DNA from: Streptosporangiaceae bacterium
GTDB taxonomy: Bacteria; Actinomycetota; Actinomycetes; Streptosporangiales; Streptosporangiaceae
Assembly: GCA_025934375.1 (NCBI GenBank)
Contig: JAICYD010000015.1
Location: forward strand, 15,073-79,072
Direction: 5' to 3'
DNA: 64,000 bases
The stretch's first letter is position 1. Each line of letters begins with the position of its first letter. Made by a program: the position numbers and the translations under genes. The notes under the pieces were generated by a model. It did not search any database. It was not told where the DNA came from and saw only the letters and a list, made by a program, of their open reading frames with translations. Below, piece after piece: positions 3,879-53,547 of this stretch.

Positions 3879-3933
3879 GCCCTTAACGATAGCCCCACCC
3901 GGCGAGCCAGGCGACGGCCGCGCACGGCCTCGG

Positions 3934-5193: not shown

Positions 5194-5796
5194 CTACCCG
5201 GCTAGCCACGCGACGGCCGCCGCGACTGACGCGAAGGTGCCGGTGACGGGACCCTGGGCCACGCTCACCGACCCCTTGGCGACCTGGATGGCACGGGTGC
5301 CGTCCTCGCGGGTCAGCCCGAGCCAGGCCGCGGCCGACTGCCGCTCATCCCCGTCGGCGGTGGTGAAGCCGTCGTTGAAGACGGCCTCGGCAAGCTGCGT
5401 CAGCGCCCACCACTGCCTGGCCGGCGGGTCGATGCGGAAGGCGTGCACCCCGGCCGGGGACACCAGCTGGCTCATCTCGATGTTCTCGGTCGTAGGCCCG
5501 TACAGGTAGATCGTCGGCCCCGCGGTCACCCAGGACCCGCCGGCATCGACCACGAGGAACATGGCACGCGGGCCGCCGCCCAGCCGCCCCACGACCTGGG
5601 CCGCGTCCCCCACCAGCAGGCCATCCTCGCTGGCCAGGCCGCGGACCACCATGGATCGCCGGCCGCGGATGATCGCCGGGACCACGCTGTCCTCATCGTC
5701 TTCGTCCACGGTGGGCAGCAGGGCGCTCCAGGCGCCCCCGGCGACAAGGGCGATAGCGGCGGCCTCGTCGTCGGTCAGCATCAATGTCTCAGTCAT
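5194..5796 (-). CDS. Hypothetical acidic cytoplasmic protein (candidate immunity or chaperone partner of the upstream WXG-fusion protein)
   Basis: 200-aa ORF with normal GC3-rich codon usage, 13 bp downstream of the 5810..6706 gene on the same strand. No signal peptide, TM segment or recognisable domain. Confidence 0.6.
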   Translation of the reverse strand: MTETLMLTDDEAAAIALVAGGAWSALLPTVDEDDEDSVVPAIIRGRRSMVVRGLASEDGLLVGDAAQVVGRLGGGPRAMFLVVDAGGSWVTAGPTIYLYGPTTENIEMSQLVSPAGVHAFRIDPPARQWWALTQLAEAVFNDGFTTADGDERQSAAAWLGLTREDGTRAIQVAKGSVSVAQGPVTGTFASVAAAVAWLAG

Positions 5797-5809: not shown

Positions 5810-6706
5810 TCAGGGCAGCAGAATGTTCAGGACGTGGTGGGACATCTTGCCGGCCATGGACCCGAGGCCGGGCAGGATCCCCTGGTTCCAGTCGGTGTGC
5901 ATCCCGGTTTGGACGGCGTCGTCGGCAAGCGACAAGCCGACCCCGAACAGGTAGGTATCGGGAAAGCTCTTGAGGATCTTGGAGCTCTCGTCGACGGTGC
6001 CGAAGACGTCGCCGTGGTAGGCGTCACGGGCCGCGCGGACCCCGTCAACGCCGACGGCCAGGACCGTAAGGGGGCCGGTGACCTTCTCCGCTCCTTCAGC
6101 CACGCCGGGCAGGACATCATGACCCCACTGGGTGACCTTCCAGCTCTTGAAGTCCATCAGCTTCGACTCCGGATTTCCGCTCAGCTCCCGCCAGGCACCG
6201 CGCACTTGATCCCAGTTCTTGGTGTACCGGCCCGTCACCCACTTGTTGTCGCCGAGGGCTTTCATCGCCTCGCGCGGCTTCCAGGTGAGTGGCTCGAACC
6301 TGAGGGCACGCTTGTCAGCCGCGTCATAGCCGCCGACGACCTTGCTGGCCAGCGAGCCACCCAGCAGAGCCCCGCCGACCAGGCCCGTGGACACGCCGGC
6401 GGTGCCGCCTGCGCTGGTTCCCGCGTCGGCAGCGGCCGCCGCGCTGGCCTGCTGCTGCTCGCGGATGTTGACGGTGAGCCGGGCATGCATGTCGGAAAGC
6501 GCGTGCGCGGTCGCGGTGAGCGCGGGGCGATGCCGCCCCTCCCATTCCTGGTGGAAGGTCGCGGCGGCCGGTCCGCGCCAGTACAGCGAGAGCTGGGCAG
6601 CCAGGTCCGCGGCGGCGGCGGAAATCTGGGCCAGCGCCTGCGCATGGTAGCCGAGTTGCCGCCCCAGGCTCTGCGCCTGGTCAACGTCCATTCCCTCGAA
6701 GGCCAA
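5810..6706 (-). CDS. WXG100-domain fusion protein (candidate T7-like secreted polymorphic toxin)
   Basis: The N-terminal ~95 aa is a WXG100 helical hairpin (MAFEGMDVDQ...LSLYWRGPAAATFHQEW, W-R-G motif). It is followed by an Ala/Gly linker, a glycine-zipper segment (GLVGGALLGGSLASKVVGG) and a ~190-aa domain I cannot assign. TTG start at 6706, preceded by AGGAG. Confidence 0.75.
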   Translation of the reverse strand: MAFEGMDVDQAQSLGRQLGYHAQALAQISAAAADLAAQLSLYWRGPAAATFHQEWEGRHRPALTATAHALSDMHARLTVNIREQQQASAAAAADAGTSAGGTAGVSTGLVGGALLGGSLASKVVGGYDAADKRALRFEPLTWKPREAMKALGDNKWVTGRYTKNWDQVRGAWRELSGNPESKLMDFKSWKVTQWGHDVLPGVAEGAEKVTGPLTVLAVGVDGVRAARDAYHGDVFGTVDESSKILKSFPDTYLFGVGLSLADDAVQTGMHTDWNQGILPGLGSMAGKMSHHVLNILLP

Positions 6707-6795: not shown

Positions 6796-7068
6796 TCAGT
6801 AGTTCTGCGAGGCGGCGACCTGCTCGTGCAGGTTCGCCTGGGTGTGATGGACCATCGTCTCCAGGCCGGCGAGCGCGCTGTTCAGCTGGGACTGGTGACT
6901 CGGCCACTCCGAGGCGAACCGCTGGGCGTCGGGGCCCTTCCAGGCGCCCTCCAGCGAGTTGACCACGCCTGGCATTGCCGCGACGACGCTCTGCAGCTGC
7001 TGCTGGAGGCTGGTCATGTGCTGCAGGACCTGGGTGACCTGGTCGACATCCATGCCTTCAAAGGCCAT
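6796..7068 (-). CDS. WXG100 family (ESAT-6-like) small secreted protein
   Basis: 90 aa with a central W-K-G motif (LEGAWKGPDAQRFASEW) and a helix-turn-helix length typical of the family. Strong RBS (AAGGAGG). Lies directly downstream of the FtsK-family ATPase. Confidence 0.85.
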   Translation of the reverse strand: MAFEGMDVDQVTQVLQHMTSLQQQLQSVVAAMPGVVNSLEGAWKGPDAQRFASEWPSHQSQLNSALAGLETMVHHTQANLHEQVAASQNY

Positions 7069-7125: not shown

Positions 7126-10100
7126 TCATTCGGGGATGGCTATCTGGGCGAGGCGCGCCCGGCCCGCTTCCACCAGCAGGCCGCGCCCGGGCGGGAACTC
7201 GCTGCGCCGTGACTTGGGGAACTCGGTCTTGAAGACCAGCGAGCCGTCGGCCGGCTCGGGCTGCAGCGCCAGGCCGGTGCGAGCGGACTTGACCGCGTTG
7301 AGCAGCGGCCAGCTCTGGCCCATCGCGGAGGTCTCTCCCTCGGCGATGACCAGGTGGCCGCCGCTGGCGAGCTTCTTGATCAGCGACCCCAGCGGCATGT
7401 CGGCCGGGGTGCCGAGGAATTCGTTGATGCCCTCGATGACCACGGCGAACGGCCGGCCGGAATCCCCGTCGCGGGTGATCTCCGCCTCCAGCTTGGCGGC
7501 CAGCTCGGCGGCCTCCTGCGGGTCGGTGGCGACCTGCTGCCAGGCGCCCAGTCCGATCAGCGGCGACCGCCGGCCGCCGAAGAACACCGGGACGGTCCGC
7601 GGCTGCGCCCGCGTCATCGCGATGACGACCGTCGCCACGGCGGTGGTGCGCCCGCTGGCCGGCGGCCCGCAGACCAGGAACACTCCCTCGGGCCGGAAGC
7701 CCGTCGCGGTCAGCGTGTCGTCGGCGATGCCGATGACCGGGCGCCCGTCCGCGGTGGCGGGCAGCTCGCTGAGCCGGACCAGCTCGGGCAGTTGCTCGAC
7801 CCGCGGCGCGGCCGCCAGCCCCCGCCGTCGCATCGCCCCGGCGAGCTGTGAGATGGCGCGGGCCTGCCCGATGTTGTCCGGTGCTCCGCCCAGCACCGCG
7901 ACCTGGAGCTCGGCGCCGCTGAGGACCGCGCGGCCAGCCGGAGCGTCGGGGCCGAGGATGCCGCGGCCGATGCCGGCCATCGCGTAGTCGTTCTCGTCGG
8001 CCAGCCGCATGATGAGGCGGCGCTGGATCGAGGAGGTGAGCCGGGCCGGCAGCGCCGACAGGCGGTCCGCGGTGACGATGACGTGGATGCCCAGGGGGCG
8101 CCCGTCGGCGGCCAGCGCGTTCAGCGCCTCGAACCACTTGCCGCCATCGAGCAGCTCGTACTGCTGCCGGAAGGCGGAGTAGCCGTCCAGGAGCACCAGG
8201 ATGCGTGGCTCGGCGGGCCGGCTGGCCAGCCGGCGGTAGTCGGTGATCGTTCCGGCGCGGACGCTGGCGAAGCGGCGGGCGCGATCGTCGGCGATGGCCA
8301 TCAGCGTGCGCAGCAGCCGGTTGATCCGGTCCCGTTCATCGGCGGCGATGATCGCGCCCACGTGCGGGAGCTCACCGAGCATGTCCAGGCCGCGGGAGCT
8401 GAAGTCGATGCCGTACACCTGGCAGGGGCCGCCGCGCACGGTGAAGCCGGCCGCGAGCGCCAGCGAGCGCAGCGCCGTTGACTTGCCGGCGCCCCCGGCC
8501 CCGATGATCGCCAGGTTCCCGTCCCGGTCCGGGTAGAACACCGAGGTCACCTGCCGCTGCCGGTCCGGCTCGTCGATCACGCCGAAGACAAGCTCGTCGT
8601 CACGTCGGCTGGAGGGCAGCCTGGCCAGGTCGTAGGCGGTCGCGAGCTCACTCAGCCACGGCCGGCGCGGGGCGGGCAGTTCGGCCTGCGCGGCCGCGCG
8701 CCGGATCGTGTCGGCAATCCGCTGGATATCTGTCGGACGCCGCGACGTCTGCGAGGCCGCGCCGCCGTCTTCGGGTGCCCGCCAGCGCTGGCCGGCGCCG
8801 ATGACGAGCTCCTCGATGGTCACGTCCGGGCGGCGGTGCCCGGTCGTCGTCCAGCCGCCGACGTACGCGGACTGGAACGGGACCAGGCGGCCGGGCCCGG
8901 TCTTGGAGACGGCCCGGCCGGGTAGCGCGGGGTCGATGTGCGCGGCCTCGGCCGAGCCGAGGACGTCGGAGCTGTCGGCCTCGTCGGCCACTCGCAGCGC
9001 GAGCCGCAGGTTCGTGTTCGCGCGCAGGTTGTCCTTGATCACCCCGGCCGGCCGCTGGGTGGCCAGGACGAGGTGCAGGCCGAGGGAGCGGCCGCGCTGG
9101 GCGACGTTGACGACGCCGTCGACGAAGTCGGGCACCTCCTGGATGAGCGCGGCGAACTCGTCGACCACGATCACCAGGCTGGGCGGGGTGTCCGGGTCAC
9201 CGGCCTTCTCCAGCTCGGGCAGGTCCTTGACCTTCTTGCGGGCGAACAGGTGCTCGCGGTAGGTGAGCTCGGCACCCAGCGAGACCAGCGCCCGGCGGAC
9301 CAGGTGCGGGCTGAGGTCGGTGACCAGGCCGACCGTGTGCGGCAGGTGGACGCAGTCGCGGAACGCCGACCCGCCCTTGTAGTCGACGAGCAGGAAGTTG
9401 ACCCGCTGCGGGCTGTGCGCCGCGGCCATGGCCAGGATCCAGGTCTGCAGCAGCTCGCTCTTGCCCGCGCCGGTGGTGCCGCCGAGCAGCGCGTGCGGGC
9501 CGTGCGCGCGCAGGTCCAGGGCGTGCGGGCCGGCGGCGGCGGCGCCGCCGCCGGCCCGCAGGCCCCCCGGCCGGCGCCGGCCGGCGGCCGGGGCGGCCGG
9601 GCCGGTGAGGATGGAGGTGGACTCCTGCCAGCGCTCGATCACCGCGGCGGGATCCTCGGCGAGCCGCGGGTCGGTCAGCTCCAGCCAGGAGACCGAGCGC
9701 GGCAGGTCGCTGTCATCGTCGAGTACCGCGCCCGCGTCGATCAGCGGGGACAGCAGCCGGCTGAACGACGTCGCGGTGGGCAAGTCGACCGCTTCGACGC
9801 CGACGTGCTGGGTGGTGATCCCTGTCAGGCCGTCAGCGATGACCGCGGTCCCGTCACCGCGGGCGTCGAGGTAGGCGGTGCAGGCGGCGGGCAGGTGCTC
9901 CGCGCGGGGGGCGACCCACAGGCAGTGGATGCCCGCCGCCGGGCCGACCCGGCTGAGCTCGACCAGGCGGGCGCGGTCAGCCTGGGCGCGGGCGTCGATC
10001 ATCACGACCACCGAGGCGCCGCCGGCACTGGCGGCGCCCGCCCCGCCCGGAGGAAGCGCCCGCGAGCGGGCCAGTTCCTCGAGCTGGCCGAGCAGCGCGG

Positions 10101-19100: not shown

Positions 19101-22100
19101 ACCGCGCGGACGATGACCCGTGCCTGCGAGGGGGCCGTGGAGCCGTCGGTGGCGCCGTAGGTGAGCTGGGCCGGGGGGTCGGCAGGGCTGGCGGGCGCCT
19201 TCAGGTAGACAAAGGACCCGTTGAGGCGGGCCCCAGGGGGCAGTGACTTGTTCGTCTGGTCCAGCGGGGCGACGGTGACCGGGTCGCCGGGGGCGATGAC
19301 GTCGTTGCCGAGGACGTCGACGTGGACGGTGGCGCCCGGCGGCGCGGACAGGACGTCGTCGACGGCGACCGGGGGCTGCGGCGGGCCGGGCGGCAGCACC
19401 GCGATGCTCACCTGCCCGGTCCCGGTCATCCCGTACGGGTCGGTCACCTGGTAGGTGAACGTGTCCGTCCCCGAGGAGGCGGGATAGGACTGGTAGCGGA
19501 TCGAGTTCGGGGTGACCGCCACGATGCGGCCCAGGGTCGGCGCGCCGGTGACGGCGGTGACGGTCGTCGAGTCGCCGTCGGGGTCGATGCCGTACGTCGG
19601 GATCTCGATGACCGCGACGTCCCCGGCCGTCTCGCGGGTCGTGACGGCCTGCGGGCTGGGTGCCTGGTCCGGGTTGGCCTTGGACGGGGGCGGTTCGACG
19701 GTGACGAACAGCTGGCCGGTCGCGGTGGTGCCGCTGGCGTCGGTCGCGACGTAGCTCACGGTCGTCTCCTGCTGGGTGGTGACGTTCGCCGGCGCGTCGA
19801 CCCGGACGGTGCCGCCCTGGTTGCTGGCGAACAGCCCCGCGATCGGCGGGGTGGCCTGCGGCGGGGTGGTGCCGAGGCTGAGCGCGAGCCCGGCCGAGCT
19901 GCTGTCGTTGGCCAGCACCGCGACGGCGGCGCTGTCGCCGGCCCTGATCGTGACGGAGGCGTCCTGCGTGGTGACCTGGTCGTCGCTGGTGGCCGGCTCG
20001 GCGGTGATGCTCACCGTCCCGGTCGCCGTGGCGTACCCGTTGCTGACGATGTAACTGGCGGTGCTCGCCGAGCCTGGCACCGGGTTGTCGGCGCTGATCC
20101 GCAGCCAGTGCTGGCTGACGACCGCGACGTGGATGCCGGCGTCGGTGGAGCTGGCGCTGGTGACGCCGAGGACGTAACCCTGCGGGTCGTAGTCGTTGGC
20201 CAGCACGTCCACCAGGGCGGGCTGCTGGCCGTGCAGGACCGCCAGGTCCGGGACCGGCACCGGCGGCTTGGGGGTGCCCGGCTTCGGGCTGGCCTGCACG
20301 CGGATCGTCCCGGTGGACGGGACGGTCGCGCCGAAGGCGGCCTGGTAGGTCAGGAAGTACGCGCCCGGCTGCTTGGCGGTGAAGGTGACCGTCCCGGCGT
20401 GCACGTCGGTGCTGACGGTCGCGCCCGCCGCCTGGGTCACCAGCCGGGCCGGGCCGGCGATGGTCAGGTGCGCCTGCGGGTCCGTCGGGTCGGCACCCGG
20501 GGTGTCGTTGCCGAGCGGCTTGATGGTGGCTGGCATGCCGACGATGGCCTGGGCGACGTCTGGCTCCGCCTTCGGCGACACCAGGTGCGTGCTCGTGGTG
20601 GCCAGCACGGTGACGGTGAGCGGCTTGCCCGGTTGCGGCGTGGCGGAGATGCCGTCGGTGACCGCGTAGTGGATGGTCGCGGCGCCGGTAGAGGTGACCT
20701 GGGGGGCGGTGTAGGAAATCGCTCCGCCGCTGGCGATGCCGACAGTGCCGCCGCCGCCGGCGCCGGTCACGGAGAGCGTCTGGCCGCTGGGGTCGCTGTT
20801 GTCATCGACGTACAGCGGGTCGCCGTCAGGGTCGCGCCAGTCGCCGACGACCGCGATGATCAGGTGCCCCCCGGAGGCGACGCTGAGGTCGGGGAGGTCG
20901 TAGTTGTCGCGCAGGCGCGGCGGGGAGTTCTCGCCGGCCTGCCGGGGCTGCAGGGTGACCTGCGCTGAGGCCGTGTGGCCCTTCCCGTCGTCGATGGTGT
21001 ACTCGAAGTGCGCGTTCGTGGTTAGCCCGGGCCCGACGGTAGCGAGCACGGTCTGTCCGTCGGGCGCGACGGCGACGCTGACCTGCGACTGATCCGGCGG
21101 TCCGACCTTGACCACGGCGAGCACGGCGCCCAGCGGCCCGCTGTCGTTGTCGAGCACGTGGACCACCGTGGTGCGTCCGGGGCGGACGCCCTGCGTGTCC
21201 GGCTTGGCCTGGAGCGGCGTGGCCTCCGGGCTGGCGATGGGACTGTTGCTGTCCTTGTTGTCCCGCTTGATGAACTGCTGCCACTGCGGCTGGATCCGGA
21301 TGACCTTGGAGTCAAGCAGGAAGACGTCGCCGTTGGCCGTGTCGTTCAGCACCACCTGGTTGTGGTTGACGCGGAAGACCAGGTCCGGGTTGTCCGAGCC
21401 GACGAGGAACGGCGCCACCATGGCCGGCGTCCCGGCGCAGGCCCGGACGTAGGTGGCACTCCCCCCGTTGGCCCAGGCGGCGTGCGCGCAGCCGCTGACC
21501 TGAACCGGGGCGGTCGCTGTGCCGGTGCGCCCGGAAGTGACCGTGTTCCACGTGCCGTTGGCCAGGTTGATCTGGTACAGCGCCGTTGAGGTGGCGGCGT
21601 AGGCGTACGGGCTGGCCGCGGAGGACTGCTGCAGGGCCAGGCCGGCCGGGCTGGGCAGCGGCGAGACGGGGCGGTTGCTGGCCGGCAGGTAGATCTTCCC
21701 GCTGGTGATGTCGGCGACGACGGGGACGTCCCCGATCGTCGTGACCTGAAGCTGGTCGCCACCGGGGAGGTTCAGGCTGGTGGCTTGCGCTTTGCCCCAG
21801 CTGGTGCCGTCGGCGGCGGCGGGGTATCGGCGCAGCAGCCCCCCGCCAGCGACGAGGATGTCGCTGTCACTGTCGACCGCGACGGCCGCGTTGCCGGGGA
21901 GCGTCGCCTTGTCCAGTGGCGTGGAACTAGCCGCGACGGACTGGACGCTCGCGCCGGGCGCCGTCATCGGCGCCGCGCGGAGCTTGTGGTCGGCGCCGAT
22001 GACGGCGAACGCGGCGCCGTTGAGCGCGGCCTGGGCATTGGAGGTGATCGGCGCCTGCGTGCCGTCGTCGGTGAACGCCGTCGTGGCCGGGTTGACGGAG

Positions 22101-22390
22101 TACACTTTTCCGCCGCTGTAGGTGGCGACCAGGCCGCCCGCCTGCCACACGTTCATGTCCCCGGCCGCGGTGGCCGGGACAATCGCGCCGTCCACCTGGT
22201 CGATCGGCTTGTTGAAGCGGCCGATCTGCCCGTCCGCCTTATCGGTGACCCACACGCCGCCGTCGTTGAGGCTCAGGTGCTGGACGGGGAAGCCCTGCGA
22301 GCGTGAGGCCAGCGCCGCCAGCGTGACCATGGCGACGCACAGCACTATGGGCGTGCCCAGGCGACCTGGGCGCGTGAATACGCGGCGCAC
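16139..22390 (-). CDS. Giant secreted or surface protein with Ig/cadherin-like repeats and five FN3 domains
   Basis: 2083 aa, GTG start, N-terminal signal or anchor (IVLCVAMVTLAALASRSQG).
- Repeated beta-sandwich modules carry VLxNDxDP-type motifs (VLDNDSGPLG, PLGNDTPGADP, VLANDYDPQG, VLGNDVIAPGDP, VLKNDDDPVG).
- About five FN3-like modules follow (e.g. VTLTWPAAPDGGSPVQQY, ITVSWAAGQDNGNAITGY).
- The C-terminus is a Cys-containing beta-sandwich. Confidence 0.85.
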   Translation of the reverse strand: MRRVFTRPGRLGTPIVLCVAMVTLAALASRSQGFPVQHLSLNDGGVWVTDKADGQIGRFNKPIDQVDGAIVPATAAGDMNVWQAGGLVATYSGGKVYSVNPATTAFTDDGTQAPITSNAQAALNGAAFAVIGADHKLRAAPMTAPGASVQSVAASSTPLDKATLPGNAAVAVDSDSDILVAGGGLLRRYPAAADGTSWGKAQATSLNLPGGDQLQVTTIGDVPVVADITSGKIYLPASNRPVSPLPSPAGLALQQSSAASPYAYAATSTALYQINLANGTWNTVTSGRTGTATAPVQVSGCAHAAWANGGSATYVRACAGTPAMVAPFLVGSDNPDLVFRVNHNQVVLNDTANGDVFLLDSKVIRIQPQWQQFIKRDNKDSNSPIASPEATPLQAKPDTQGVRPGRTTVVHVLDNDSGPLGAVLAVVKVGPPDQSQVSVAVAPDGQTVLATVGPGLTTNAHFEYTIDDGKGHTASAQVTLQPRQAGENSPPRLRDNYDLPDLSVASGGHLIIAVVGDWRDPDGDPLYVDDNSDPSGQTLSVTGAGGGGTVGIASGGAISYTAPQVTSTGAATIHYAVTDGISATPQPGKPLTVTVLATTSTHLVSPKAEPDVAQAIVGMPATIKPLGNDTPGADPTDPQAHLTIAGPARLVTQAAGATVSTDVHAGTVTFTAKQPGAYFLTYQAAFGATVPSTGTIRVQASPKPGTPKPPVPVPDLAVLHGQQPALVDVLANDYDPQGYVLGVTSASSTDAGIHVAVVSQHWLRISADNPVPGSASTASYIVSNGYATATGTVSITAEPATSDDQVTTQDASVTIRAGDSAAVAVLANDSSSAGLALSLGTTPPQATPPIAGLFASNQGGTVRVDAPANVTTQQETTVSYVATDASGTTATGQLFVTVEPPPSKANPDQAPSPQAVTTRETAGDVAVIEIPTYGIDPDGDSTTVTAVTGAPTLGRIVAVTPNSIRYQSYPASSGTDTFTYQVTDPYGMTGTGQVSIAVLPPGPPQPPVAVDDVLSAPPGATVHVDVLGNDVIAPGDPVTVAPLDQTNKSLPPGARLNGSFVYLKAPASPADPPAQLTYGATDGSTAPSQARVIVRAVTGAKLAPIANDDIATPASPSAATVTVNVLKNDDDPVGSASDLKLSWAPAGVTKQGPSLVIPVKANPREVPYQVTAPDGLTATAVVFVPGTATSAIRLKEGARITLPPRGSVTVPLASVLTDSFGRPLRITTTDQLISSPAGNITVTTHQDTSFQVQAQGTYAGPGAVSVQVYDGSTIQDPKGHVATLTIPVQVGVDTPVLRCPSGNGNALQVVEGGASATYNISLLCHVWTDTTIATAAPRYAAGGWTTPVTGVTATIVGNGTGLRLLAASSAKAGDRGTLRITADGAAASSGGLLSVTVVAAPPPSGRAVSLATNAGQPAFADLAQYVSSPLPQPAISIPDAPKVARASVTVSGSRLTVTPEPSFHGTLQFVVTVADEPGRVDRQIQLAVSVSVIARPGAPGPPSAKTSSHTAQVFFSPAAPNGAPVQLYTVFTDRQGHQCAASPCTISGLANGHSYDVYVTATNSAGQGAASLHGTAKPDEVPSQITGLNTTPGDQQVTLTWPAAPDGGSPVQQYLAEVSPAPASGASLQKLAPSARSVTFTGLTNGTSYSFRVQASNSLGPGPWSAAVPMTPYGKPLTMGAPTATGAAVPNPATTRAITVSWAAGQDNGNAITGYTVTPYSSGSSGGPWTAGTPAAVGGGTTSTSFTVTNDGTYYEYTVTATNAAGDSTPSPQSSPPVQGIAPPDAPATPSAADHDASTGKGYDGAIQVTFTAPNGNGGSITSVEYGLNGQSTSGTWNGPFTAGASVTQTASGLANGSNYVVYVRGCNSLACGPWSSASNQVTPYGAPGAPTNVTAASSGTTISYSWGGGAGNGRPLDHYIYCIDGANCQNSTGTTASGSYGYSSSHNVTVYAVDSAGQQSAGATSNTATTAAPPSPTVSISRGPNEPTATCTSGSGCSAVHVIGNNFTPGATLTYTCSDNHGGTWWTDTRAWGGALVKADGSGHTDFETNCVWGNNNWSLSNWTLTINVSDGSKSASGSYTG

Positions 22391-22609: not shown

Positions 22610-24469
22610 TTAGCCACAGGCAGCGCTTGAATACGGGGAGGACTGCCCGGTGCCCGCGCGCACCACACGTACCTGGATGCACACTCGCCCCGGGCCGGAT
22701 GCCGGAAGGGAGATCGGCTCGCGCGCGACGGTCCGCGGCGAGCCGGCGTCTCCGGCGCGCTTCCACTGAAAGGAGTCTCCCGTCCGGGCATTAGCGTAGG
22801 TCCACGAAAAGTGGACCTCGCCGCCGCTCACCGTCGGGGTGGCTATCGTCGGCGTCCCTGGCGGGGCACCACCGGGACCGATCGCGCTTTGGTCGGCGCC
22901 GTTGCCGAGTGCGGTGGTCGCCGGAGCCTGCGGCGGCCCGCCGCCCGCGGCGCCGTGCAGCGCCACCGCTGCGCCGACGGCGGCGACCGCCGCGACCAGC
23001 ACGCCGCCGATCACCAGGCCAGCGCGCCGCCGGGGGCCGGGCGAGACGGTCTCGTCCTCCAAGCCGGCCACGGCCGGCGGCCCCGTCCTCAAGGGCCGTC
23101 CGGGGGTGAAGCCCGGGCTGGACGTTCCGCCGAGCAAGCGCGCGTCTCCCCGCCGCATCGTGGTGTCCGGTTCGCCGGGCAGCGGCGGCAGCACCCGCTC
23201 GCGGGCCGGCGGGGGCGACCCGAAGGCGCCTTCATCCCAAGGGGCGACGCGCCGCGGGCTGCGCTGCCGGGTCACGTCGTCATCAGACGGCCGGGACGGC
23301 GGGCCAGGGAACGGCTCCTGGTACACCTCCCGGCGGGAATCGGCGAAGCCCTGGGGGTCCAGCACGCGCGGGCCACGCTGCCGGGTGACATCGTCATTCC
23401 CGCCGCGAAGCGGCCAGCCGTCGGGGTTAGCAGTGCCGGGGTTGACTGGGCCGGGGTTGACTGGGCCGGGGTCCCAGGGGCTGGGTCGCTGACCCCGCCT
23501 GGCCACGGTGGCGTCCCCGAAGCGGGCGCCATCCCCGGGCCGGGCCGGGAAGCCGTACCCGGGAGTGTGCGGCCCGGGGCCGCCGGCCTGCGGGGGGTCA
23601 TCGTCGGGGACGATCACCTGCGTGTGCGGCAGGTGCAGTTCCTGCTCGATCGCCTGGAGCTCACGGGCCAGGTCAAGCGCGCGCTGCGGGCGCGCGTCGG
23701 GGTTCTTCGCCAGCGCCTGGCGCAACAGCCGCTCCAGGCTGTCGGGGACGTCGGCTCGCCCGGTGCGCGGCGGGCTATCGGCCTGGACGCGGCGCATCAA
23801 GGCGAACGCCGTGTTGTCCCCGCCCGGCACCTCATACGGTGACCGGCCGGCCAGCAGGTGCCACAGGGTCGCGCCGAGCGAGTACACGTCAGAGCGCTCA
23901 TCGCCATCGGAGGTGCCGAACAGCACCTCCGGCGGCGACCACGGCACCGACATCCCCTCGGCCCCGCCGGCGCCCTTGGCGCTCGCGATGCCGAAGTCGG
24001 TCAGCGCCGGGGTGCCGAACTTGCCGGTCAGGATGTTGTGCGGCTTGATGTCCCGGTGCAGGATCCCGCCCCGGTGACTCGTCTCCACCGCGCCGGCGAT
24101 CTGCACGCCGACCTTCAGCACCTCGGAGACGGGGAAATGGCCGCGCCGCGCCCGCACCCCCAGGTTGGGCTGGGAGTAATACTGCATGACCAGGTACGGG
24201 CGGCCATCGGGCGCGATGTCGGCGGTGAACACCGACGCGATGTTCGGGTGATCGGCCAGCCCCGCCATGGCGTTCGCCTCGGCGGTGAACTGGCGGGCGA
24301 CCGCGTCGGTCAGCCCCGCCTCGTTGAGCACCTTCACCGCGACCTCGCGCTTGGGCCGCTGCTGCTCATACAGGAAGACCTCGGCGTTCCCGCCCGAGCC
24401 GATGTGGTGCAGGTACCGGTAGCCCGGCAGCTCAGGCGGCGGCTGCTTACGGGGTGGTCCGGCGCTCAT
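22610..24469 (-). CDS. Membrane Ser/Thr protein kinase with an FN3-like ectodomain
   Basis: Hanks kinase motifs are intact (GSGGNAEV, VAVKVL, HRDIKPHNIL, DFGIA, SPPE). A Pro-rich linker, one TM helix (LVIGGVLVAAVAAVGAAVAL) and a ~90-aa beta-rich C-terminus follow. Confidence 0.9.
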   Translation of the reverse strand: MSAGPPRKQPPPELPGYRYLHHIGSGGNAEVFLYEQQRPKREVAVKVLNEAGLTDAVARQFTAEANAMAGLADHPNIASVFTADIAPDGRPYLVMQYYSQPNLGVRARRGHFPVSEVLKVGVQIAGAVETSHRGGILHRDIKPHNILTGKFGTPALTDFGIASAKGAGGAEGMSVPWSPPEVLFGTSDGDERSDVYSLGATLWHLLAGRSPYEVPGGDNTAFALMRRVQADSPPRTGRADVPDSLERLLRQALAKNPDARPQRALDLARELQAIEQELHLPHTQVIVPDDDPPQAGGPGPHTPGYGFPARPGDGARFGDATVARRGQRPSPWDPGPVNPGPVNPGTANPDGWPLRGGNDDVTRQRGPRVLDPQGFADSRREVYQEPFPGPPSRPSDDDVTRQRSPRRVAPWDEGAFGSPPPARERVLPPLPGEPDTTMRRGDARLLGGTSSPGFTPGRPLRTGPPAVAGLEDETVSPGPRRRAGLVIGGVLVAAVAAVGAAVALHGAAGGGPPQAPATTALGNGADQSAIGPGGAPPGTPTIATPTVSGGEVHFSWTYANARTGDSFQWKRAGDAGSPRTVAREPISLPASGPGRVCIQVRVVRAGTGQSSPYSSAACG

Positions 24470-26112
24470 CCGGCGACCTCAAAGCGGAAGTAAATCCCAT
24501 CGGCCAGGGTCACCACGGTTGCGTTGGGGATGAGGACGGGCTCTTTGGGCCTGAGCCGCTCGGGCGGCCGGCCCGGGAACTCCACCAGCGTCCCGTTGGT
24601 GGACTCCAGGTCCGTCAGGAGCACGTGCCAGCCATCGAGGGTAATGGTGAGGTGGGTCCGGGAGATCTCGCCGTCGCCGCTGGGCAGCTTGACCACGTGC
24701 GGACGCTCGTCCCCGTTCAGCTCCGAGCGCGGGTTGCGGCCCATGACGACGCTGCGGTCCAACGTGATCACGTCACCGGTGGACAACCGCAGCAAGCCGA
24801 GCGCCGGGCGGGATACCAGGACCGGCTCTTGCGGTGGCAGGGGCTCGCCGCAAACCCGGCAGGCGACGCTGTTCGGCGGGCTGACATGCCCGGCCAGGCA
24901 GAGCAGGCCCTGCACGATCGGGCCGATGCGGTCGACGAGCGCCGGGACGGGGACGGCCTGGGCCAGGCTGGCGCGCCGGATGGTGTTGGTGTTCTCCGGG
25001 TTGCCTGGATCGGGCGGGGTCCCGTTGGCGCTGCCGGGGAAGGGCTCACCGCCGGGAAGGGGGCCGCTCGCGGGGAAGCTCCCGGGCGGGAGGGGCGGCG
25101 GGACCGTGATGGTGGAGATCAGCGCGCGCGGCGGGAGCGTCGCGGTCGGGTCCAGGGGCGCGGCCGGCTGGGCAGGCAGAGACGCTGGCAGGGGCGGTGG
25201 GGCGCTTTCCCAGGGGACGCGGTCGATCATGCCGCCGCCCCCGGGGCCGTCTAGCGGGACGGGCGCCGCCGGAGGGGGCGGGGCGGAAGGGGCGAGCGGC
25301 CATTCGGCGGGAGGGGCGCTTTCCGGGCCTAGGGTCCCCGGGACCGGGCCTCCCAGGACCGGGCCTGCCGGCAAAGGACTCGCCGGTACAGGGCTTCCCA
25401 GGATCTGGGCGTGCGGTTCGGGCGGCGACCCGAAGCCGGGAAACGAGGACCCGCCGGGGAAGGAGAAAAGGGAGTCGCCCCCGCTGTCGGGCCGGATCGC
25501 GGCATCCTCAACCGAGCGCATCTGAGTCGCCTCGAAGAGGAAGTCGTAACCGGGGTCACCAGCCTCGTCGCCGGCGGGGAGCACGGGAGCGGGAGCGGGA
25601 GCGGGCCAGCCGGGAGCGGGAGCGGTGACGGGCATCGGGCGAGACTGCTGGCCCGCGCCCGACAGGTCCACGATCACGGAGCTGGCCAGGAAGATCCCGG
25701 CGGACGCCGGCAGCCGCAATGAGCTCTCTGTGGCCGGCTCGCCGATCACCACGCACGTGACGCCGGCCGGCATCGGGTAATCAAGCCAGGTCGCCAGCCC
25801 GGCCCCGGTAACGCGCTGCGCGCTGCCGTCGAGGTCCTCCACGACGGCGCCGCCGCTGCCCCGGCAGATCAGGTGCCGCCGCCCGTCACCACCGCAGGCC
25901 AGCAGGGCGAAGTCCGGCATGTGCGCGAACCCGAACTGCAAGACCCCGGCGAACAGCTCTTCCAGCCGTGCTTGCGGCATTGGCCCGGCCAGGCCCATCC
26001 GCCGCCAGATCTCGGCGACGACCGCCGAATCCGGCGAGGCGTCGATCAGCACCCAGCACGAATCGCCAGCGATCGCGGTGCGGCCACCCGGTACGTAGCT
26101 GACGTCAGCCAT
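24466..26112 (-). CDS. FHA-domain protein with zinc-ribbon and an unassigned N-terminal domain
   Basis: C-terminal FHA (VVMGRNP...GEISRTHLTITLDGWHVLLTDLESTNGTLV), preceded by a CxxH...CxxC ribbon (CLAGHVSPPNSVACRVCGEPL) and a long Pro-rich linker. The start is set at ATG 26112 (MADVSYVPGG...). The longer ORF to 26385 runs inside the PP2C gene. Confidence 0.8.
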   Translation of the reverse strand: MADVSYVPGGRTAIAGDSCWVLIDASPDSAVVAEIWRRMGLAGPMPQARLEELFAGVLQFGFAHMPDFALLACGGDGRRHLICRGSGGAVVEDLDGSAQRVTGAGLATWLDYPMPAGVTCVVIGEPATESSLRLPASAGIFLASSVIVDLSGAGQQSRPMPVTAPAPGWPAPAPAPVLPAGDEAGDPGYDFLFEATQMRSVEDAAIRPDSGGDSLFSFPGGSSFPGFGSPPEPHAQILGSPVPASPLPAGPVLGGPVPGTLGPESAPPAEWPLAPSAPPPPAAPVPLDGPGGGGMIDRVPWESAPPPLPASLPAQPAAPLDPTATLPPRALISTITVPPPLPPGSFPASGPLPGGEPFPGSANGTPPDPGNPENTNTIRRASLAQAVPVPALVDRIGPIVQGLLCLAGHVSPPNSVACRVCGEPLPPQEPVLVSRPALGLLRLSTGDVITLDRSVVMGRNPRSELNGDERPHVVKLPSGDGEISRTHLTITLDGWHVLLTDLESTNGTLVEFPGRPPERLRPKEPVLIPNATVVTLADGIYFRFEVAG

Positions 26113-26926
26113 TGCCAGGCTGGCCGGGCAGCTCACCTCGTGGCAGCGTCGTGACGTCCACGCGGGTTTCGTCCAGGGCCCCGCCGGAGCCACCCAGGTC
26201 GCCGAAGCCGACGACCTCGGCCACGATGACGGTGACGTTGTCGTGGCCGCCGGCGTCCTCAGCGGCGGCGACCAGCGCGGTGGCCGCCACCTGCGGGCTG
26301 CCGGAGGCGAGGAGCACCGCGATCCGCTCGTCGGGGACCTCGGTGTACAGACCGTCGGAGCACACCAGGAACCGGTCCCCGGCATTCGCGGGCAGCAGCC
26401 AGTAGTCGGGCCGGGGGCCCGGGTCGGTGCCCAGCGCGCGGGTCACGATGTTGCGCCGTGGGTGGACGCGCGCCTGGTCGCGGGTGATCACGCCAGCCAG
26501 GACCAGTTCCTGGACCTCGGAATGGTCCACGGTGACCTGGTCAAGCCGCCCCTCGACGAGCCGGTAGACCCGGGAGTCGCCGACGTTGAAGACCATGAGG
26601 TGGTCACCGCCGCCGGTCTCCAGCAGGGCCAGCCCGGTGATCGTGGTGCCCATGCCCTTGGCGCCCTCGTACGTGACGATGGCGCGGTTGGCGGCATCCA
26701 GGGCGGCGAGCACTCCATCGGCGGTCAGCGGCCGGACCCGGGCCGCGGAGGTCAGCGTGTCGATGGCGAGCCTGCTCGCCAGGTCCCCCGCGCCATGGCC
26801 GCCCATGCCATCTGCCACCGCGAACAGCGGCGGTATGGCCAGATAGCTGTCCTCGTTCACCCGGCGGACCCGGCCCGGGGATGTCGCCGCGCTATGCCAG
26901 AACCGGGTCATGGGGTGGCAGCGCAC
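26105..26926 (-). CDS. PP2C-family Ser/Thr phosphatase
   Basis: GRVRRVNEDS...FAVADGMGGHGAG...GTTITGL...NVGDSRVY...LVCSDGL...DNVTVIV are the canonical PPM motifs. Confidence 0.9.
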   Translation of the reverse strand: MRCHPMTRFWHSAATSPGRVRRVNEDSYLAIPPLFAVADGMGGHGAGDLASRLAIDTLTSAARVRPLTADGVLAALDAANRAIVTYEGAKGMGTTITGLALLETGGGDHLMVFNVGDSRVYRLVEGRLDQVTVDHSEVQELVLAGVITRDQARVHPRRNIVTRALGTDPGPRPDYWLLPANAGDRFLVCSDGLYTEVPDERIAVLLASGSPQVAATALVAAAEDAGGHDNVTVIVAEVVGFGDLGGSGGALDETRVDVTTLPRGELPGQPGNG

Positions 26927-33456: not shown

Positions 33457-36400
33457 ATGTCCCCTATGACTGGACGCGTTATCGCGGGACGTTACCGCCT
33501 CGCTGAGCCGATTGGCCGCGGGGCGATGGGTGTTGTCTGGCGCGCCAAGGACCAGCTCCTTGACCGGGATGTCGCGATCAAGGAAGTCCGCTTCAACGAG
33601 GCACTCGGCGAAGTCGAGCGGTCCAACGCCTACAAGCGGACCCTTCGCGAGGCCCGGACCGCGGCGCGCCTCAGTCACCGGGGCGTGGTCACCGTCTTCG
33701 ACGTGGCCGAGGAAGACGGGCGGCCGTGGATCGTCATGGAGCTCATCCGCTCCCGGTCGCTGGATGAGCTGCTGGCCACCGACGGACCGATGCCGCCCGG
33801 GCGCGTGGCCAGGATCGCCCAGCAACTGCTATCCGCGCTGGCGCACGCGCACTCGGCGGGGGTGCTGCACCGGGACGTCAAGCCGAGCAACGTGCTGATC
33901 GCGACGGGCGGGCTCGACGAGCGCGCGGTGCTCACCGACTTTGGCATCGCCCAGTTCGAGGGCGACCCGCGGCTGACCCAGACGGGCATGGTCATGGGGT
34001 CGCCGGGCTTCACGGCGCCGGAGCGGATCCGGGGCGGGGACGCGACGCCCGCCTCTGACCTGTGGTCGCTCGGCGCGACGATCTACGCGGCCAGCGAGGG
34101 CCGGGGGCCTTACGAGCAGCGCGGCGGCGCGATCACCACGATGACCGCGATCATCAACGAGGACGCGCCGGTCGCGCCGTCGGCCGACCGGCTCCAGCCC
34201 GTCATCGCGACGCTGTTGCGGCGCGACCCGATGCGCCGGCCGCCGGCCGCGGTCGCCGCGAGCATGATCGCCGAGGTGCTGCCGTTGCTGCCGGAGACCC
34301 GGGGCGGCCGTGGCGGCACGGTGCTCTCGCAGTCGCCAGGCTCCGCGCGGCGGTCGCCGCTGGCTGGCCCGGTGCCACCTCCGGCGCCGTCGACGCCGGC
34401 CCGGGGGCAGGGGGCCGGATCGGTGCCGCCGCCGGCGCCTTCTGGCGTCGCCGCGACGGGGATCGACCCGCCGGCGCCCAAGGCCGCCGCGGCGAGGGCC
34501 GCGGAGGCAGCGAAGGCGGCCGAGGCCGCCAAGGCGGCGAAGTCCGACGGGGCAGGGGAAGGGGCAGGGGCAGCAGCGGCGGCGGGCGGGGCCGCGGGGG
34601 TTGCGGCGCCTAAGGGAACTGCGGAGGCCAAGGGATCTGCCGGGGCCGCGGCGAAGGTGGATGCCGCGCCGTCGGGGACGCCGGATGCTGCGGACGCGAT
34701 CGTTTCGCAGGCGGCCGGCGCTGAGGACGCGGGCGCGGCTTCGGGATCGGGATCGGCTTCGGGTCCTGACTCGGTTGAGGAGGCGCCCGACGCGGCCCTC
34801 GATGAGGCAGGGTCGCCTGAGGCTGCGCTGTCCGAGGCAGTGCCGGAGAAGGCAGGGTCGGCCAAGGAAGCGCCGGAAAAAGGGGTGCCAGATAAGGCGG
34901 GGTCGGCTAAGGAAGCGGCCCTGGCGCAGGCCGTTGCCTCCGACGGTAGCTCCGCGGGCGAGCCGGAACTCGAGCCCACGGCGCGGGGCATCCCGGTGGC
35001 CCGCGTGCCTGTCCCGGCGAAGCCGACGCCCGATAAGGCGGTTCCCGGCCAGGCGGACGCGGGCGAGTCGGGCGCCGCCCCGGCGGCCGCCAGCAGCGCG
35101 GCTGCCGGGTCAAGCGACACCGACCAGTATGCGAAGACGTCACTGACGAATTCCGGCGCGATCTTGGCGGCGGCCGAGAGCAGGAGCGCCGCCGCCGCGA
35201 GCAGTCCTGCGGGAAATGCCGCGGGAAGCGGCGCGGCGGGCCACGAGGTGACCGTGAAGGCGAGCACCGCCGCCCCGGCCAGTGCCACGCCCTCGGGATC
35301 GGCGGCTCCCGAGCCCACGGTCAAGGTGAGCACTCCGTCCACGCCCAGCGCCACCGTGAAGGCAACCACCCCGCAGGCACCTCCCGCGCCGAAGCCTGCC
35401 CCGCCGCAGCCCGCGCCGCCGCAGCCGTCTGAGAAGGACGCCTGGTGGTCCAACGCCTACCAGACGCAGGGTCCCTCGTTCTCACCGTCGCAGAACAAGC
35501 CCGCGACCCCGCACACCCCCGCACAGCCTGGCCCTGCTTCGCCCTTCTCGCAGCCAACGCACTACGCGCCGCCGGGGCGGTACACCTCGCCAGGGCGCCC
35601 GCCCGGGCCGGCCACCACCCCGCACTCGCCGCAAAACTACAACTACCAGTATCCGGCGGGCTCCAACCCGGACGGCAGCGGCGGCCGGGTCGAGTCCACC
35701 TCGCCTCCCCGTAAGGGCAGCGCCGGGAAGAAGATCCTCCTCGGCGTCCTCGCGGTGATCGTGGTCGCGGCGGTCGTCGTTGCGGCGACGCTCCTCGGCA
35801 AGCGCCACGCGTCCACGCCGAACGCGGCGAACTCATCGACGCCAGCCGGATCCAATGGCCCGTCGACCTCGGCCAGCGCAGCGGCGGGCGGCCCGGTCCC
35901 GCCGGTCACGCGGGACACGCCCACGGTCGTGCGGGCTATCGATGACCACAGCGACACGGTGCCGGCCGGCTACACGCCTTACACGCTGCACCCTTCCTCC
36001 GCTGGGACGACGGCCGGCTTCGAGCTCGACGTCCCGCCCGGATGGCAGGTTGAGCAGCAGACGCCCCAGCGGATCTTCTTCAACGCGCCGGACGGCCTTA
36101 GCAACGTTGAGGTTGACCTCACCCCGCACACCAGGCCGGACATGGTCGCCGAGGCGCAGTTCCTGAAGCAGCAGACCGTCAGCCAGGGCAAGTTCTCGCA
36201 GTACAAGGAGCTCGAGCTCGGCCCCGAGAACGTCCTCGGCACGCGGGGCGCGCTGTGGCGGTTCGACTGGACGAACCCGAAGACCGGCAGGCAGATGCGC
36301 GTGGACGACATGCTGTTCGTCTTGCAGACGCCGAACGGCCCGCAGTCCTACGCTATCTTCATGACCGCGCCGGACGGGAAAGCGGCCGGCAGCTGGAATG

Positions 36401-36459
36401 CCACGATCTTGCCGATCATCGCCAACATGATGCAGTCCTTCAAGGAGGCCAGCTCCTGA
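33457..36459 (+). CDS. Ser/Thr protein kinase with a long low-complexity linker, TM helix and extracellular sensor-like domain
   Basis: Hanks domain (GRGAMGVVW, VAIKEV, HRDVKPSNVL, DFGIA, APE). About 450 aa of Ala/Pro/Gly/Ser-rich sequence follow, then a TM helix (ILLGVLAVIVVAAVVVAATLLG) and a ~190-aa globular C-terminus. Confidence 0.85.
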   Translation: MSPMTGRVIAGRYRLAEPIGRGAMGVVWRAKDQLLDRDVAIKEVRFNEALGEVERSNAYKRTLREARTAARLSHRGVVTVFDVAEEDGRPWIVMELIRSRSLDELLATDGPMPPGRVARIAQQLLSALAHAHSAGVLHRDVKPSNVLIATGGLDERAVLTDFGIAQFEGDPRLTQTGMVMGSPGFTAPERIRGGDATPASDLWSLGATIYAASEGRGPYEQRGGAITTMTAIINEDAPVAPSADRLQPVIATLLRRDPMRRPPAAVAASMIAEVLPLLPETRGGRGGTVLSQSPGSARRSPLAGPVPPPAPSTPARGQGAGSVPPPAPSGVAATGIDPPAPKAAAARAAEAAKAAEAAKAAKSDGAGEGAGAAAAAGGAAGVAAPKGTAEAKGSAGAAAKVDAAPSGTPDAADAIVSQAAGAEDAGAASGSGSASGPDSVEEAPDAALDEAGSPEAALSEAVPEKAGSAKEAPEKGVPDKAGSAKEAALAQAVASDGSSAGEPELEPTARGIPVARVPVPAKPTPDKAVPGQADAGESGAAPAAASSAAAGSSDTDQYAKTSLTNSGAILAAAESRSAAAASSPAGNAAGSGAAGHEVTVKASTAAPASATPSGSAAPEPTVKVSTPSTPSATVKATTPQAPPAPKPAPPQPAPPQPSEKDAWWSNAYQTQGPSFSPSQNKPATPHTPAQPGPASPFSQPTHYAPPGRYTSPGRPPGPATTPHSPQNYNYQYPAGSNPDGSGGRVESTSPPRKGSAGKKILLGVLAVIVVAAVVVAATLLGKRHASTPNAANSSTPAGSNGPSTSASAAAGGPVPPVTRDTPTVVRAIDDHSDTVPAGYTPYTLHPSSAGTTAGFELDVPPGWQVEQQTPQRIFFNAPDGLSNVEVDLTPHTRPDMVAEAQFLKQQTVSQGKFSQYKELELGPENVLGTRGALWRFDWTNPKTGRQMRVDDMLFVLQTPNGPQSYAIFMTAPDGKAAGSWNATILPIIANMMQSFKEASS

Positions 36460-53361: not shown

Positions 53362-53547
53362 AGATGGCACCTCACTGTGCTGGCGGTCCCAGGTCGTGCA
53401 AGGGTTCCCAGCTCGGAAACTAGACCAACCGCGGGCGCGTGAGAAGACTAGCCTTTGAACTAAGCCGTAAAAAAACCGTGAAAGCTTTGACGCCCGACGG
53501 CCTCGGGGGCGCGTCGCCGACGGCTTTAGGGGCACTGCCGCGCCGGA

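Follow-up and report, generated by a model that had tools for sequence, protein, structure and literature searches.

A probable receptor kinase of an Esr/PFNA-type envelope-sensing module, encoded in one row with a minimal Esx unit in a Trebonia-like actinomycete

Is a membrane kinase that shares its topology with EssB, and its locus with an EssC-like ATPase, a stand-in for this core component of type VII secretion systems (T7SS), or is it a regulator that belongs to another module? The question is raised by a 64,000-nucleotide (nt) stretch of contig JAICYD010000015.1 of a Streptosporangiaceae bacterium (the whole analysed stretch is called the window in the following; its G+C content is ~72%), in which a gene on the minus strand (22610-24469, ATG start) encodes a membrane Hanks-type Ser/Thr kinase of 619 amino acids (aa). 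The original prediction had placed this kinase where T7SSb systems carry the EssB pseudokinase. Based on gene order and domain architecture, we consider it likely that it is instead the receptor-type Ser/Thr kinase, equivalent to EsrE or Pkb2, of an envelope-sensing module of the Esr (epibiont sensing and response) or PFNA kind, which is fused in one row with a minimal Esx unit, and that it acts as a regulator rather than as a replacement of EssB.

The kinase and its gene row

The kinase gene stands in third place in a row of eleven genes, all on the minus strand, which are separated by short gaps or overlap by 4-8 nt. In this order they encode a PP2C phosphatase, an FHA protein, the kinase, a giant Ig/FN3 protein, a MoxR ATPase, a DUF58 protein, a transglutaminase, an EssC-like ATPase, a WXG100 protein, a WXG-fused protein and a protein of 200 aa (orf200), the overlaps being found at the PP2C/FHA, FHA/kinase, DUF58/transglutaminase and transglutaminase/ATPase junctions. 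From 24469 to 11529, the succession of kinase, FN3 protein, MoxR, DUF58 and transglutaminase is that of the PFNA operon of Bifidobacterium, pkb2-fn3-aaa_atp (MoxR)-duf58-tgm, to which prpC and fha also belong (PMC8430577). Its kinase Pkb2 is a transmembrane (TM) protein with a variable outer region; both its autophosphorylation and its action on the MoxR ATPase as a substrate have been reported (PMC8430577; Nezametdinova et al., 2018, cited there). The Esr system of Schaalia odontolytica (Wang et al., bioRxiv September 2026, doi 10.64898/2026.09.08.750141, PMC13622651) is in turn composed of EsrA, a secreted filament with beta-propeller and Ig domains, a MoxR and a vWA protein, the transglutaminase EsrD, the kinase EsrE, the phosphatase EsrF and the FHA protein EsrG. 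In Schaalia, a Thr in the linker of EsrG becomes phosphorylated upon contact with epibionts, in an EsrA-dependent manner; esx genes adjoin 40% of 3502 Esr loci, fusions of EsrG to EccC occur in some cases, and an esx-linked copy of the system, Esr2, exerts post-translational control over the export of a subset of substrates (PMC13622651). A triad of the EsrE/EsrF/EsrG type is co-encoded in the window and recurs in related loci.

We compared the row with related loci of Actinomycetota. A contig scan anchored on the kinase returned mostly generic HRDIKPxN matches and only three orthologous loci (L001-L003), so that scans anchored on MoxR and on the ATPase were used; a scan anchored on a single transglutaminase sequence found no loci. 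Across the resulting 83 loci (80 MoxR-anchored and the three kinase-anchored ones), the genes for PP2C, FHA protein, kinase, giant Ig/FN3 protein, MoxR, DUF58 and transglutaminase recur together (six of these seven genes in the comparison set), in genera including Nocardioides, Aeromicrobium, Kutzneria, Actinokineospora, Intrasporangium, Cellulosimicrobium, Arthrobacter, Leifsonia and Microbacterium. The genes of the phospho-triad precede that of the giant protein in some loci and follow that of the transglutaminase in others, and the gene order is identical in Trebonia-like contigs. Of the 83 loci, 58 contain the kinase, and only about 18 have an EssC-like ATPase within their flanks. Starting from the ATPase, 54 loci of orthologues had enough upstream sequence to be compared: 52 of these ATPases carry an N-terminal FHA domain, MoxR/DUF58/transglutaminase genes lie directly upstream in 27 loci, and only kinase, PP2C or FHA genes are nearby in four, whereas 23 loci have no kinase within 10 kb, the ATPase being FHA-bearing in 22 of these 23. 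Together, these counts indicate that the kinase is a fixed part of the MoxR/giant-protein module and an optional, if frequent, neighbour of the ATPase. The linkage between the Esr-type module and EssC is thus frequent, and obligate in neither direction.

The kinase itself, a type-I membrane receptor in its architecture, is composed of a Hanks domain, a disordered linker of ~200 aa, one TM helix and an FN3 ectodomain of 88 aa (GC3 of the open reading frame (ORF), 0.89). The catalytic domain spans residues 17-283 (23621-24421, minus strand), of which residues 17-262 match Pfam Pkinase (E 9e-35). The Hanks set is complete and includes the Gly-rich loop (GSGGNAEV, residues 24-31), the beta3 Lys (in VAVK, residues 43-46), the alphaC Glu, HRDxKxxN (HRDIKPHN, residues 138-145), DFG (residues 158-160), (A/S)PE (in SVPWSPPE, residues 174-181), the alphaF Asp and the alphaH-I Arg. 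In a family alignment of 90 homologues, G26/G27, K46, E64, H138, D140, N145, D158-F159-G160, S174, W177, S178, E181, D194 and R260 are invariant, and K142 is conserved in at least 90% of the sequences. As every catalytic residue is kept, the family appears to be under selection for catalysis. The modelled domain (mean pLDDT 86, pTM 0.86) adopts the bilobal kinase fold, with PknB, PknA, Stk1 and PknE leading the Foldseek matches (E 2e-19 to 1e-16; TM-scores of 0.75-0.87 to PknB and PknA), and a sequence search of the PDB placed StkP, PknB and PknA on top, at ~30% identity in the catalytic domain. By its motifs and its PknB-like modelled fold, the kinase therefore looks catalytically intact and enzymatically alive, in agreement with the original prediction, whose Hanks motifs (VAVK, HRDIKPHN, DFG and SPPE) were each recovered. 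More than 5000 database proteins match it at E <= 1e-10, the closest relatives being full-length proteins of soil metagenomes and of metagenome-assembled genomes of Trebonia sp., a genus placed in Streptosporangiales. PADLOC matches of the kinase (PD-T4-6, mad6) were rejected as signs of an anti-phage system, since they are generic domain matches and the partner genes are absent.

A single TM helix (residues 485-504, 22958-23017) was located by a hydropathy scan, and beyond it lies an extracytoplasmic FN3-like domain (residues ~532-619, 22613-22876) with a conserved Cys pair, identified from the model and Foldseek. The ectodomain is modelled as all-beta, with block-mean pLDDT values of 87-97 (mostly >90), and its best PDB matches are FN3 domains, namely those of tissue factor, cytokine receptors, LAR and chitinase A1 (TM-score 0.70, target-normalised); the small extracellular FN3-like beta-domain that had been anticipated behind one TM helix is thus recovered. 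The segment FSWTYANARTGDSFQW (residues 554-569) lies within this domain, whose pattern FxW...GDxF/Y...C...C is kept across orders: the FN3 ectodomain with its Cys pair is found in Propionibacteriales, in Micrococcales-type and Pseudonocardiales-type genera and in the Trebonia-like clade. HRD, DFG, a single TM helix and an ectodomain of 85-119 aa are shared by nearly all of the 58 extracted kinase orthologues.

As far as our tools tell, the relationship between this kinase and EssB seems to be confined to the generic kinase fold. Against Pfam YukC/EssB (PF10140) the kinase gave no match at E <= 10, only Pkinase-type families being matched, and the 50 best of at least 2000 Foldseek matches of its model are all canonical protein kinases, EssB being absent from them; a direct superposition on EssB was not part of this comparison. 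The outer domain is of the FN3 type and not helical, while the C-terminal outer segment of EssB is described as helical (PMC3694306). The kinase gene is also separated from the ATPase gene by four genes, or about 11 kb, and is conserved together with those of the giant protein, MoxR, DUF58 and the transglutaminase, not with that of EssC. Neither the proposed position of the kinase in the place of EssB nor a derivation from EssB is borne out by these results. Of the idea of a phosphorylation-driven version of the EssB-EssC(FHA) interaction, one part does stand: phospho-signalling that touches the Esx unit is plausible, given the PP2C phosphatase, two intact FHA domains and the experiments in a related system (PMC13622651), even though the EssB position or EssB descent of the kinase is unsupported. 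The picture of EssB evolution is left unchanged by the kinase.

The row opens with a PP2C-type Ser/Thr phosphatase (EsrF or PrpC equivalent; 26105-26926, minus strand; Pfam PP2C_2 3e-11, NCBIfam Stp1/IreP PP2C 1.6e-59), the gene of which lies directly upstream of the FHA-protein gene in relatives too. The giant Ig/FN3 surface protein (EsrA or FN3 equivalent; 2083 aa; 16139-22390, minus strand; six Pfam Big_9 and three fn3 matches) begins with an N-terminal signal-anchor (TM residues 9-31) followed by an N-terminal region of ~400 aa without family assignment, and a C-terminal TM helix was not detected in its hydropathy profile. Three further minus-strand genes complete this part of the row. The MoxR-family AAA+ ATPase (15134-16126; AAA_3 7e-63, bpMoxR 8e-12) is 61-84% identical to the MoxR proteins of related loci; the DUF58 protein (13934-15124; Pfam DUF58 3e-09) has one TM helix (residues 39-72), DUF58 domains being vWA-like; and the polytopic TgpA-like transglutaminase (EsrD or Tgm equivalent; 11529-13937; Transglut_core 1.6e-13, TgpA_N) has about seven TM helices, its gene overlapping both the DUF58 and the ATPase genes by 4 nt.

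Outside the row, two envelope-related proteins are encoded directly downstream (3225-5157, minus strand), one of them PGA_cap (capsule-synthesis-type) and the other DUF1707/LiaF-like. A second, unrelated Ser/Thr kinase of 1000 aa (33457-36459, plus strand; Pkinase 5e-44), with a long C-terminal part without listed domain, adjoins a fumarate hydratase gene, and two coding-like ORFs of 700 aa (51433-53535, minus strand) and 344 aa (56964-57998, plus strand) have no Pfam match at E <= 0.001.

Phosphothreonine readers and a possible signalling path

Two proteins of the row carry FHA domains, as had been predicted: the protein encoded directly upstream of the kinase and the 1468-aa ATPase. The former is an EsrG-like FHA protein (24466-26112, minus strand; Pfam FHA 3e-08). 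Its ORF extends mechanically to 26385, but translation probably begins at the ATG at 26112; this start and the PP2C stop codon overlap by 8 nt (ATGGCTGA), as they do in the gene calls of relatives. At its other end, its stop codon overlaps the ATG of the kinase by 4 nt. The protein has a globular N-terminal domain of ~150 aa, a zinc-ribbon-like motif and an FHA domain in which the phosphothreonine (pThr)-binding residues GR, SxxH and NG are conserved in at least 90% of 67 sequences. Its linker is Pro-rich, disordered and otherwise unalignable, and within it YDFLFEATQMRSVEDAAIR holds Thr196, as part of the conserved motif YDFLFEATQMRS(VEDAAIR) (25513-25548, minus strand) that was recognised by its recurrence in relatives. 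In the form YDxL[FW]xxT(V/Q)xRx[VI]E[DE]AAVR, this motif is found in 23 of 62 EsrG-like ORFs of several families, among them sequences from Arthrobacter, Leifsonia, Herbiconiux and Acidimicrobiaceae. From this pattern of conservation, Thr196 appears to be a candidate phospho-acceptor.

A second group of candidate sites lies in the kinase itself. Between the catalytic domain and the TM helix, the juxtamembrane disordered linker contains three Thr motifs (residues 359-442, 23144-23395, minus strand), located by motif position and by conservation: DDVTRQRGPRV (359-369), DDDVTRQRSPRR (396-407) and PDTTMRRGD (434-442), which amount to two to three D-D-x-T-R-Q-R-(G/S)-P-R repeats. In the first two of them, both the Thr and its +3 Arg reach at least 90% conservation among 90 close homologues. 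These repeats and the Thr196 motif of the FHA protein are both of the TxxR type, and the linker motifs might serve as docking sites for FHA domains.

The other reader would be the EssC/EccC-like FtsK/SpoIIIE ATPase (7126-11532, minus strand; TIGR03928 2e-151, EccCa, EccCb), which has two TM helices and P-loop motifs at residues 684-692, 1011-1018 and 1289-1296. Its FHA domain (residues 99-184, 10981-11238; FHA and Yop-YscD_cpl matches) keeps GR, SxxH and SANG in at least 90% of 8 sequences, and both FHA domains of the row keep GR, SxxH and (S/T)xNG across orthologues. In front of it, residues 1-85 (11278-11532) form a YukD-like beta-grasp N-terminus (Pfam YukD E 0.011), and the orthologues share the start MK[LIV]K[LFV]T; a ubiquitin-like component may thus be fused to the ATPase in its clade, in contrast to T7SSd, which is reported without one. 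Among Microbacteriaceae, eight Esr loci (L118, L121, L123, L130, L132, L133, L148, L149) encode an FtsK-like ATPase of only 900-1000 aa that begins at the TM helices and is devoid of the beta-grasp and FHA domains, so that the Esr module is linked also to an FHA-less ATPase type. PADLOC matches of the window ATPase (mad8, SspH) were generic domain matches without their partner genes, and were likewise rejected as an anti-phage system.

The ATPase is accompanied by few other secretion genes. The WXG100 protein (90 aa; 6796-7068, minus strand; Pfam WXG100 29.1 bits, cut-off 27.3) has a WKG motif, and the 298-aa protein that follows (5810-6706, minus strand; weak WXG100 match at E 0.0047, TIGR03930) combines a WXG100-like N-terminus with an Ala/Gly linker and a C-terminal domain of ~170 aa without assignment. 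Its N-terminal part is conserved in locus L081 and in other loci, and it is a candidate Esx substrate. The last protein of the row (200 aa; 5194-5796, minus strand) matched nothing in Pfam, NCBIfam or PADLOC; it shares 51% identity with the corresponding protein of L081, the closest relative, and is possibly a partner or immunity protein of the 298-aa protein. None of EsaA, EssA, EssB, EccB, EccD, EccE and MycP is encoded within the 64 kb; of the T7SSb set (EsaA, EssA, EssB and EsaB with EssC and EsxA) only the ATPase and WXG100 genes are present, plus the YukD-like stretch fused to the ATPase. The earlier T7SSb label of the locus is therefore doubtful: the match of the ATPase to the EssC model TIGR03928 stays, with 506 bits, below the cut-off of 778, the EccCa and EccCb models score nearly equally, and the other T7SSb genes are missing. 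Across the ATPase clade, WXG100 genes are the only broadly conserved neighbours apart from Esr genes, and when the 23 kinase-less ATPase loci were searched for a conserved membrane partner, only WXG100 genes were common to them.

These elements can be combined into a tentative path from the cell surface to secretion. The 2083-aa Ig/FN3 protein, which probably has a beta-propeller in its N-terminal region, would be displayed as a filament on the surface and anchored by the polytopic transglutaminase, as was shown for EsrA and EsrD in Schaalia (PMC13622651), while the MoxR-DUF58 pair would remodel or control it. A change at the surface would then reach the kinase through its FN3 ectodomain and single TM helix, and the kinase would phosphorylate Thr residues, the best candidates being the TRQR(G/S)PR repeats of its juxtamembrane linker and the YDFLFEA-T-QMRS site of the FHA-protein linker. 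Two readers could take up this signal: the zinc-ribbon-FHA protein would convert it into a transcriptional or other output, and the N-terminal FHA domain of the ATPase would gate the export of the WXG100 protein and of the WXG-fused 298-aa protein, before the PP2C phosphatase resets the system. The whole chain of filament, MoxR/DUF58, transglutaminase, kinase, phosphatase, two pThr readers, ATPase and substrates is encoded in one tightly overlapping row, and Thr196 together with the TRQR repeats of the kinase offers testable sites for how an Esr signal reaches an Esx ATPase.

Weighing the assignment against other explanations

Several observations weigh against the assignment to an Esr/PFNA module, or against parts of the path proposed from it. 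The equivalence of the kinase to Schaalia EsrE and Bifidobacterium Pkb2 is drawn from synteny and domain architecture. In the N-terminal domain of the FHA protein, Pfam and PDB searches gave no sequence match, and the "pseudophosphatase" described for EsrG1 was not confirmed; the N-terminal profile of the 2083-aa protein matched only beta-propellers, at weak scores (E 0.05-0.2; NHL repeat at E 1.7). The TRxRGP repeats of the kinase linker are restricted to a clade, only some distant orthologues having them, and patescibacterial epibionts as the input of the pathway were shown only for the oral Schaalia (PMC13622651). The direct link from kinase to ATPase is the weakest step of the mechanism, as many FHA-bearing ATPases (22 of 52 loci) have no kinase within 10 kb, and the FHA domain of the ATPase may therefore serve another ligand or another kinase.

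An alternative that leaves the module itself in place concerns its input. It is conceivable, if clearly less probable than the assignment as such, that the pathway is of the Esr type and responds to something other than epibionts, such as phage adsorption, cell-wall damage or contact with competitors, with the link to the ATPase as one of several outputs. The host is a soil-type Trebonia-like actinomycete and not an oral host of Saccharibacteria, and its MoxR protein matches bpMoxR (8e-12) of the MoxR-vWA-beta-propeller ternary system, which Aravind and colleagues tied to biological conflict generally. The authors of the Esr study moreover call the mode of epibiont sensing unknown and describe outputs that vary over at least 13 EsrG architectures, although Saccharibacteria are the only experimental input known for the family (PMC13622651). 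It also speaks against another input that Patescibacteria are common in soils as well.

It is rather doubtful that the Esr kinase acts directly on the motor of the minimal Esx unit. According to this explanation, its autophosphorylated D-x-T-R-x-R-G-P-R repeats (pTxxR) would be bound by the FHA domain of the ATPase, with the FHA protein, which has a TxxR linker motif of its own, as a competitor, and secretion would be switched on within seconds without transcription; the transglutaminase and the kinase might then be part of a membrane assembly. If true, such a direct switch would be a phospho-dependent counterpart to the phospho-independent EssB-EssC(FHA) contact of T7SSb. The repeats are seen both with an adjacent FHA-ATPase (L081, L088, L093) and without one (L097, L110, L145), a distribution that speaks neither for nor against this explanation.

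Further still from what the loci suggest, and in our view improbable, is a structural role, in which the kinase would be a core part of a variant T7SS and the functional equivalent of EssB (or of TscD/TsdD), docking the FHA domain of the ATPase via pThr and being needed for channel assembly. Its topology is indeed that of EssB, with a cytoplasmic kinase fold, one TM helix and an outer domain, and the FHA domain of the ATPase keeps the pThr-binding residues, unlike that of T7SSb EssC; a membrane kinase and a large Ig-like protein are also listed as core parts of T7SSd (PMC11217815). The window encodes no EccB/D/E, MycP, EsaA or EssA/B as a membrane partner of the ATPase, and the genes of the transglutaminase and the ATPase share 4 nt. 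Yet the kinase accompanies the MoxR module far more often than the ATPase, about 40% of the ATPase orthologues (23/54 loci) have no kinase within 10 kb, nearly all of them FHA-bearing, and it shows no sequence or preferential structural similarity to EssB/YukC, from which it also differs in its FN3 ectodomain. In Schaalia, deletion of the esx-linked esrA2 left the export of EsxA/EsxB nearly intact, which points to regulation, the deleted gene being that of the filament and not of the kinase (PMC13622651).

Finally, we consider it extremely improbable that this is a housekeeping PknB-like kinase of growth and division that stands near secretion genes by chance: in sequence and structure it is matched best by PknB, PknA and StkP, and in the mycobacterial division cluster PknB likewise stands alongside a PP2C phosphatase and an FHA protein, but it has a single FN3 ectodomain and no PASTA domains (NCBIfam PknB_PASTA 174 bits, cut-off 450), domain searches of the window found no FtsW/RodA or PBP genes near it, and its MoxR/DUF58/transglutaminase/giant-protein neighbourhood is conserved in dozens of genera.

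Comparison with known systems

The catalytic domain is nearest, in sequence and structure, to those of PknB, PknA and Stk1, kinases that likewise have PP2C and FHA partners and that differ from the window kinase in their PASTA repeats, their outer domain and their genomic context. With EssB, the kinase has in common a cytoplasmic kinase-type fold, one TM helix, an extracytoplasmic domain and a locus with an FHA-bearing ATPase. In EssB, however, the catalytic motifs are degenerate and the outer segment is helical, whereas the kinase has all motifs, an FN3 domain and no YukC match; and while EssB is a fixed neighbour of EssC and binds an EssC FHA domain without pThr residues, the kinase is missing near ~40% of the ATPase orthologues.

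The variants T7SSc to T7SSj were defined by Garrett et al. (2024, PMC11217815). TscD has an EssB-like topology and a conserved kinase active site without apparent sequence identity to EssB; the FHA domains of T7SSb EssC have no pThr site while those of the actinobacterial TsdC keep it; and the control of assembly or activity by Thr phosphorylation was raised as a possibility (Garrett et al., 2024, PMC11217815). The concept of an active kinase with EssB-like topology that controls an FHA-EssC by phosphorylation thus has a published precedent in other T7SS variants (Garrett et al., 2024, PMC11217815). The window shares with T7SSc, T7SSd and T7SSe (TscD, TsdD, TseD) the membrane Ser/Thr kinase of this topology with a conserved active site, and with T7SSd, which is itself actinobacterial, also an FHA-ATPase with the pThr consensus (TsdC), a large Ig-like envelope protein and a WXG100 protein (TsdA). 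It departs from T7SSd in several respects. The outer region of TsdD is predicted to be helical, whereas that of the window kinase is of the FN3 type; TsdI has a C-terminal TM helix, which is not detectable in the giant protein of the window; no counterpart of the small single-TM protein TsdH was identified in the window, where no search was aimed at it; the MoxR, DUF58 and transglutaminase genes of the row are absent from the description of T7SSd; and the ATPase has a YukD-like N-terminus, whereas T7SSd is reported without a ubiquitin-like element.

The PFNA operon of Bifidobacterium has the same gene order plus the PP2C and FHA genes, and a kinase, Pkb2, of like build, in which a catalytic domain and one TM helix are combined with an outer C-terminal region that is variable. 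It differs in that its FN3 protein is much smaller than the giant protein of the window, in that the window row runs directly into an EssC-like ATPase, and in that PFNA was read as a sensor of host cytokines, a function that is not applicable to a soil organism.

With Esr, the row shares the Ig-repeat filament, MoxR, the vWA/DUF58 protein, the transglutaminase, the kinase, the PP2C phosphatase and an FHA protein with a disordered linker. Esr loci, too, often lie beside an EccC/EssC ATPase and WXG100 genes, and the joining of an FHA domain to the ATPase is likewise described for them. The EsrA beta-propeller and the EsrG pseudophosphatase domain are unconfirmed in the window proteins, the FHA protein has a zinc-ribbon-like motif, and the host is Trebonia-like (Streptosporangiales), while Esr was reported mainly from Actinomycetales and Propionibacteriales (PMC13622651). 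The system of the window is therefore a Trebonia-like representative of an already described kind, and the comparison with EssB is already in print; the row brings a soil lineage of Streptosporangiales to a threat-sensing module that has newly been tied by experiment to type VII secretion.

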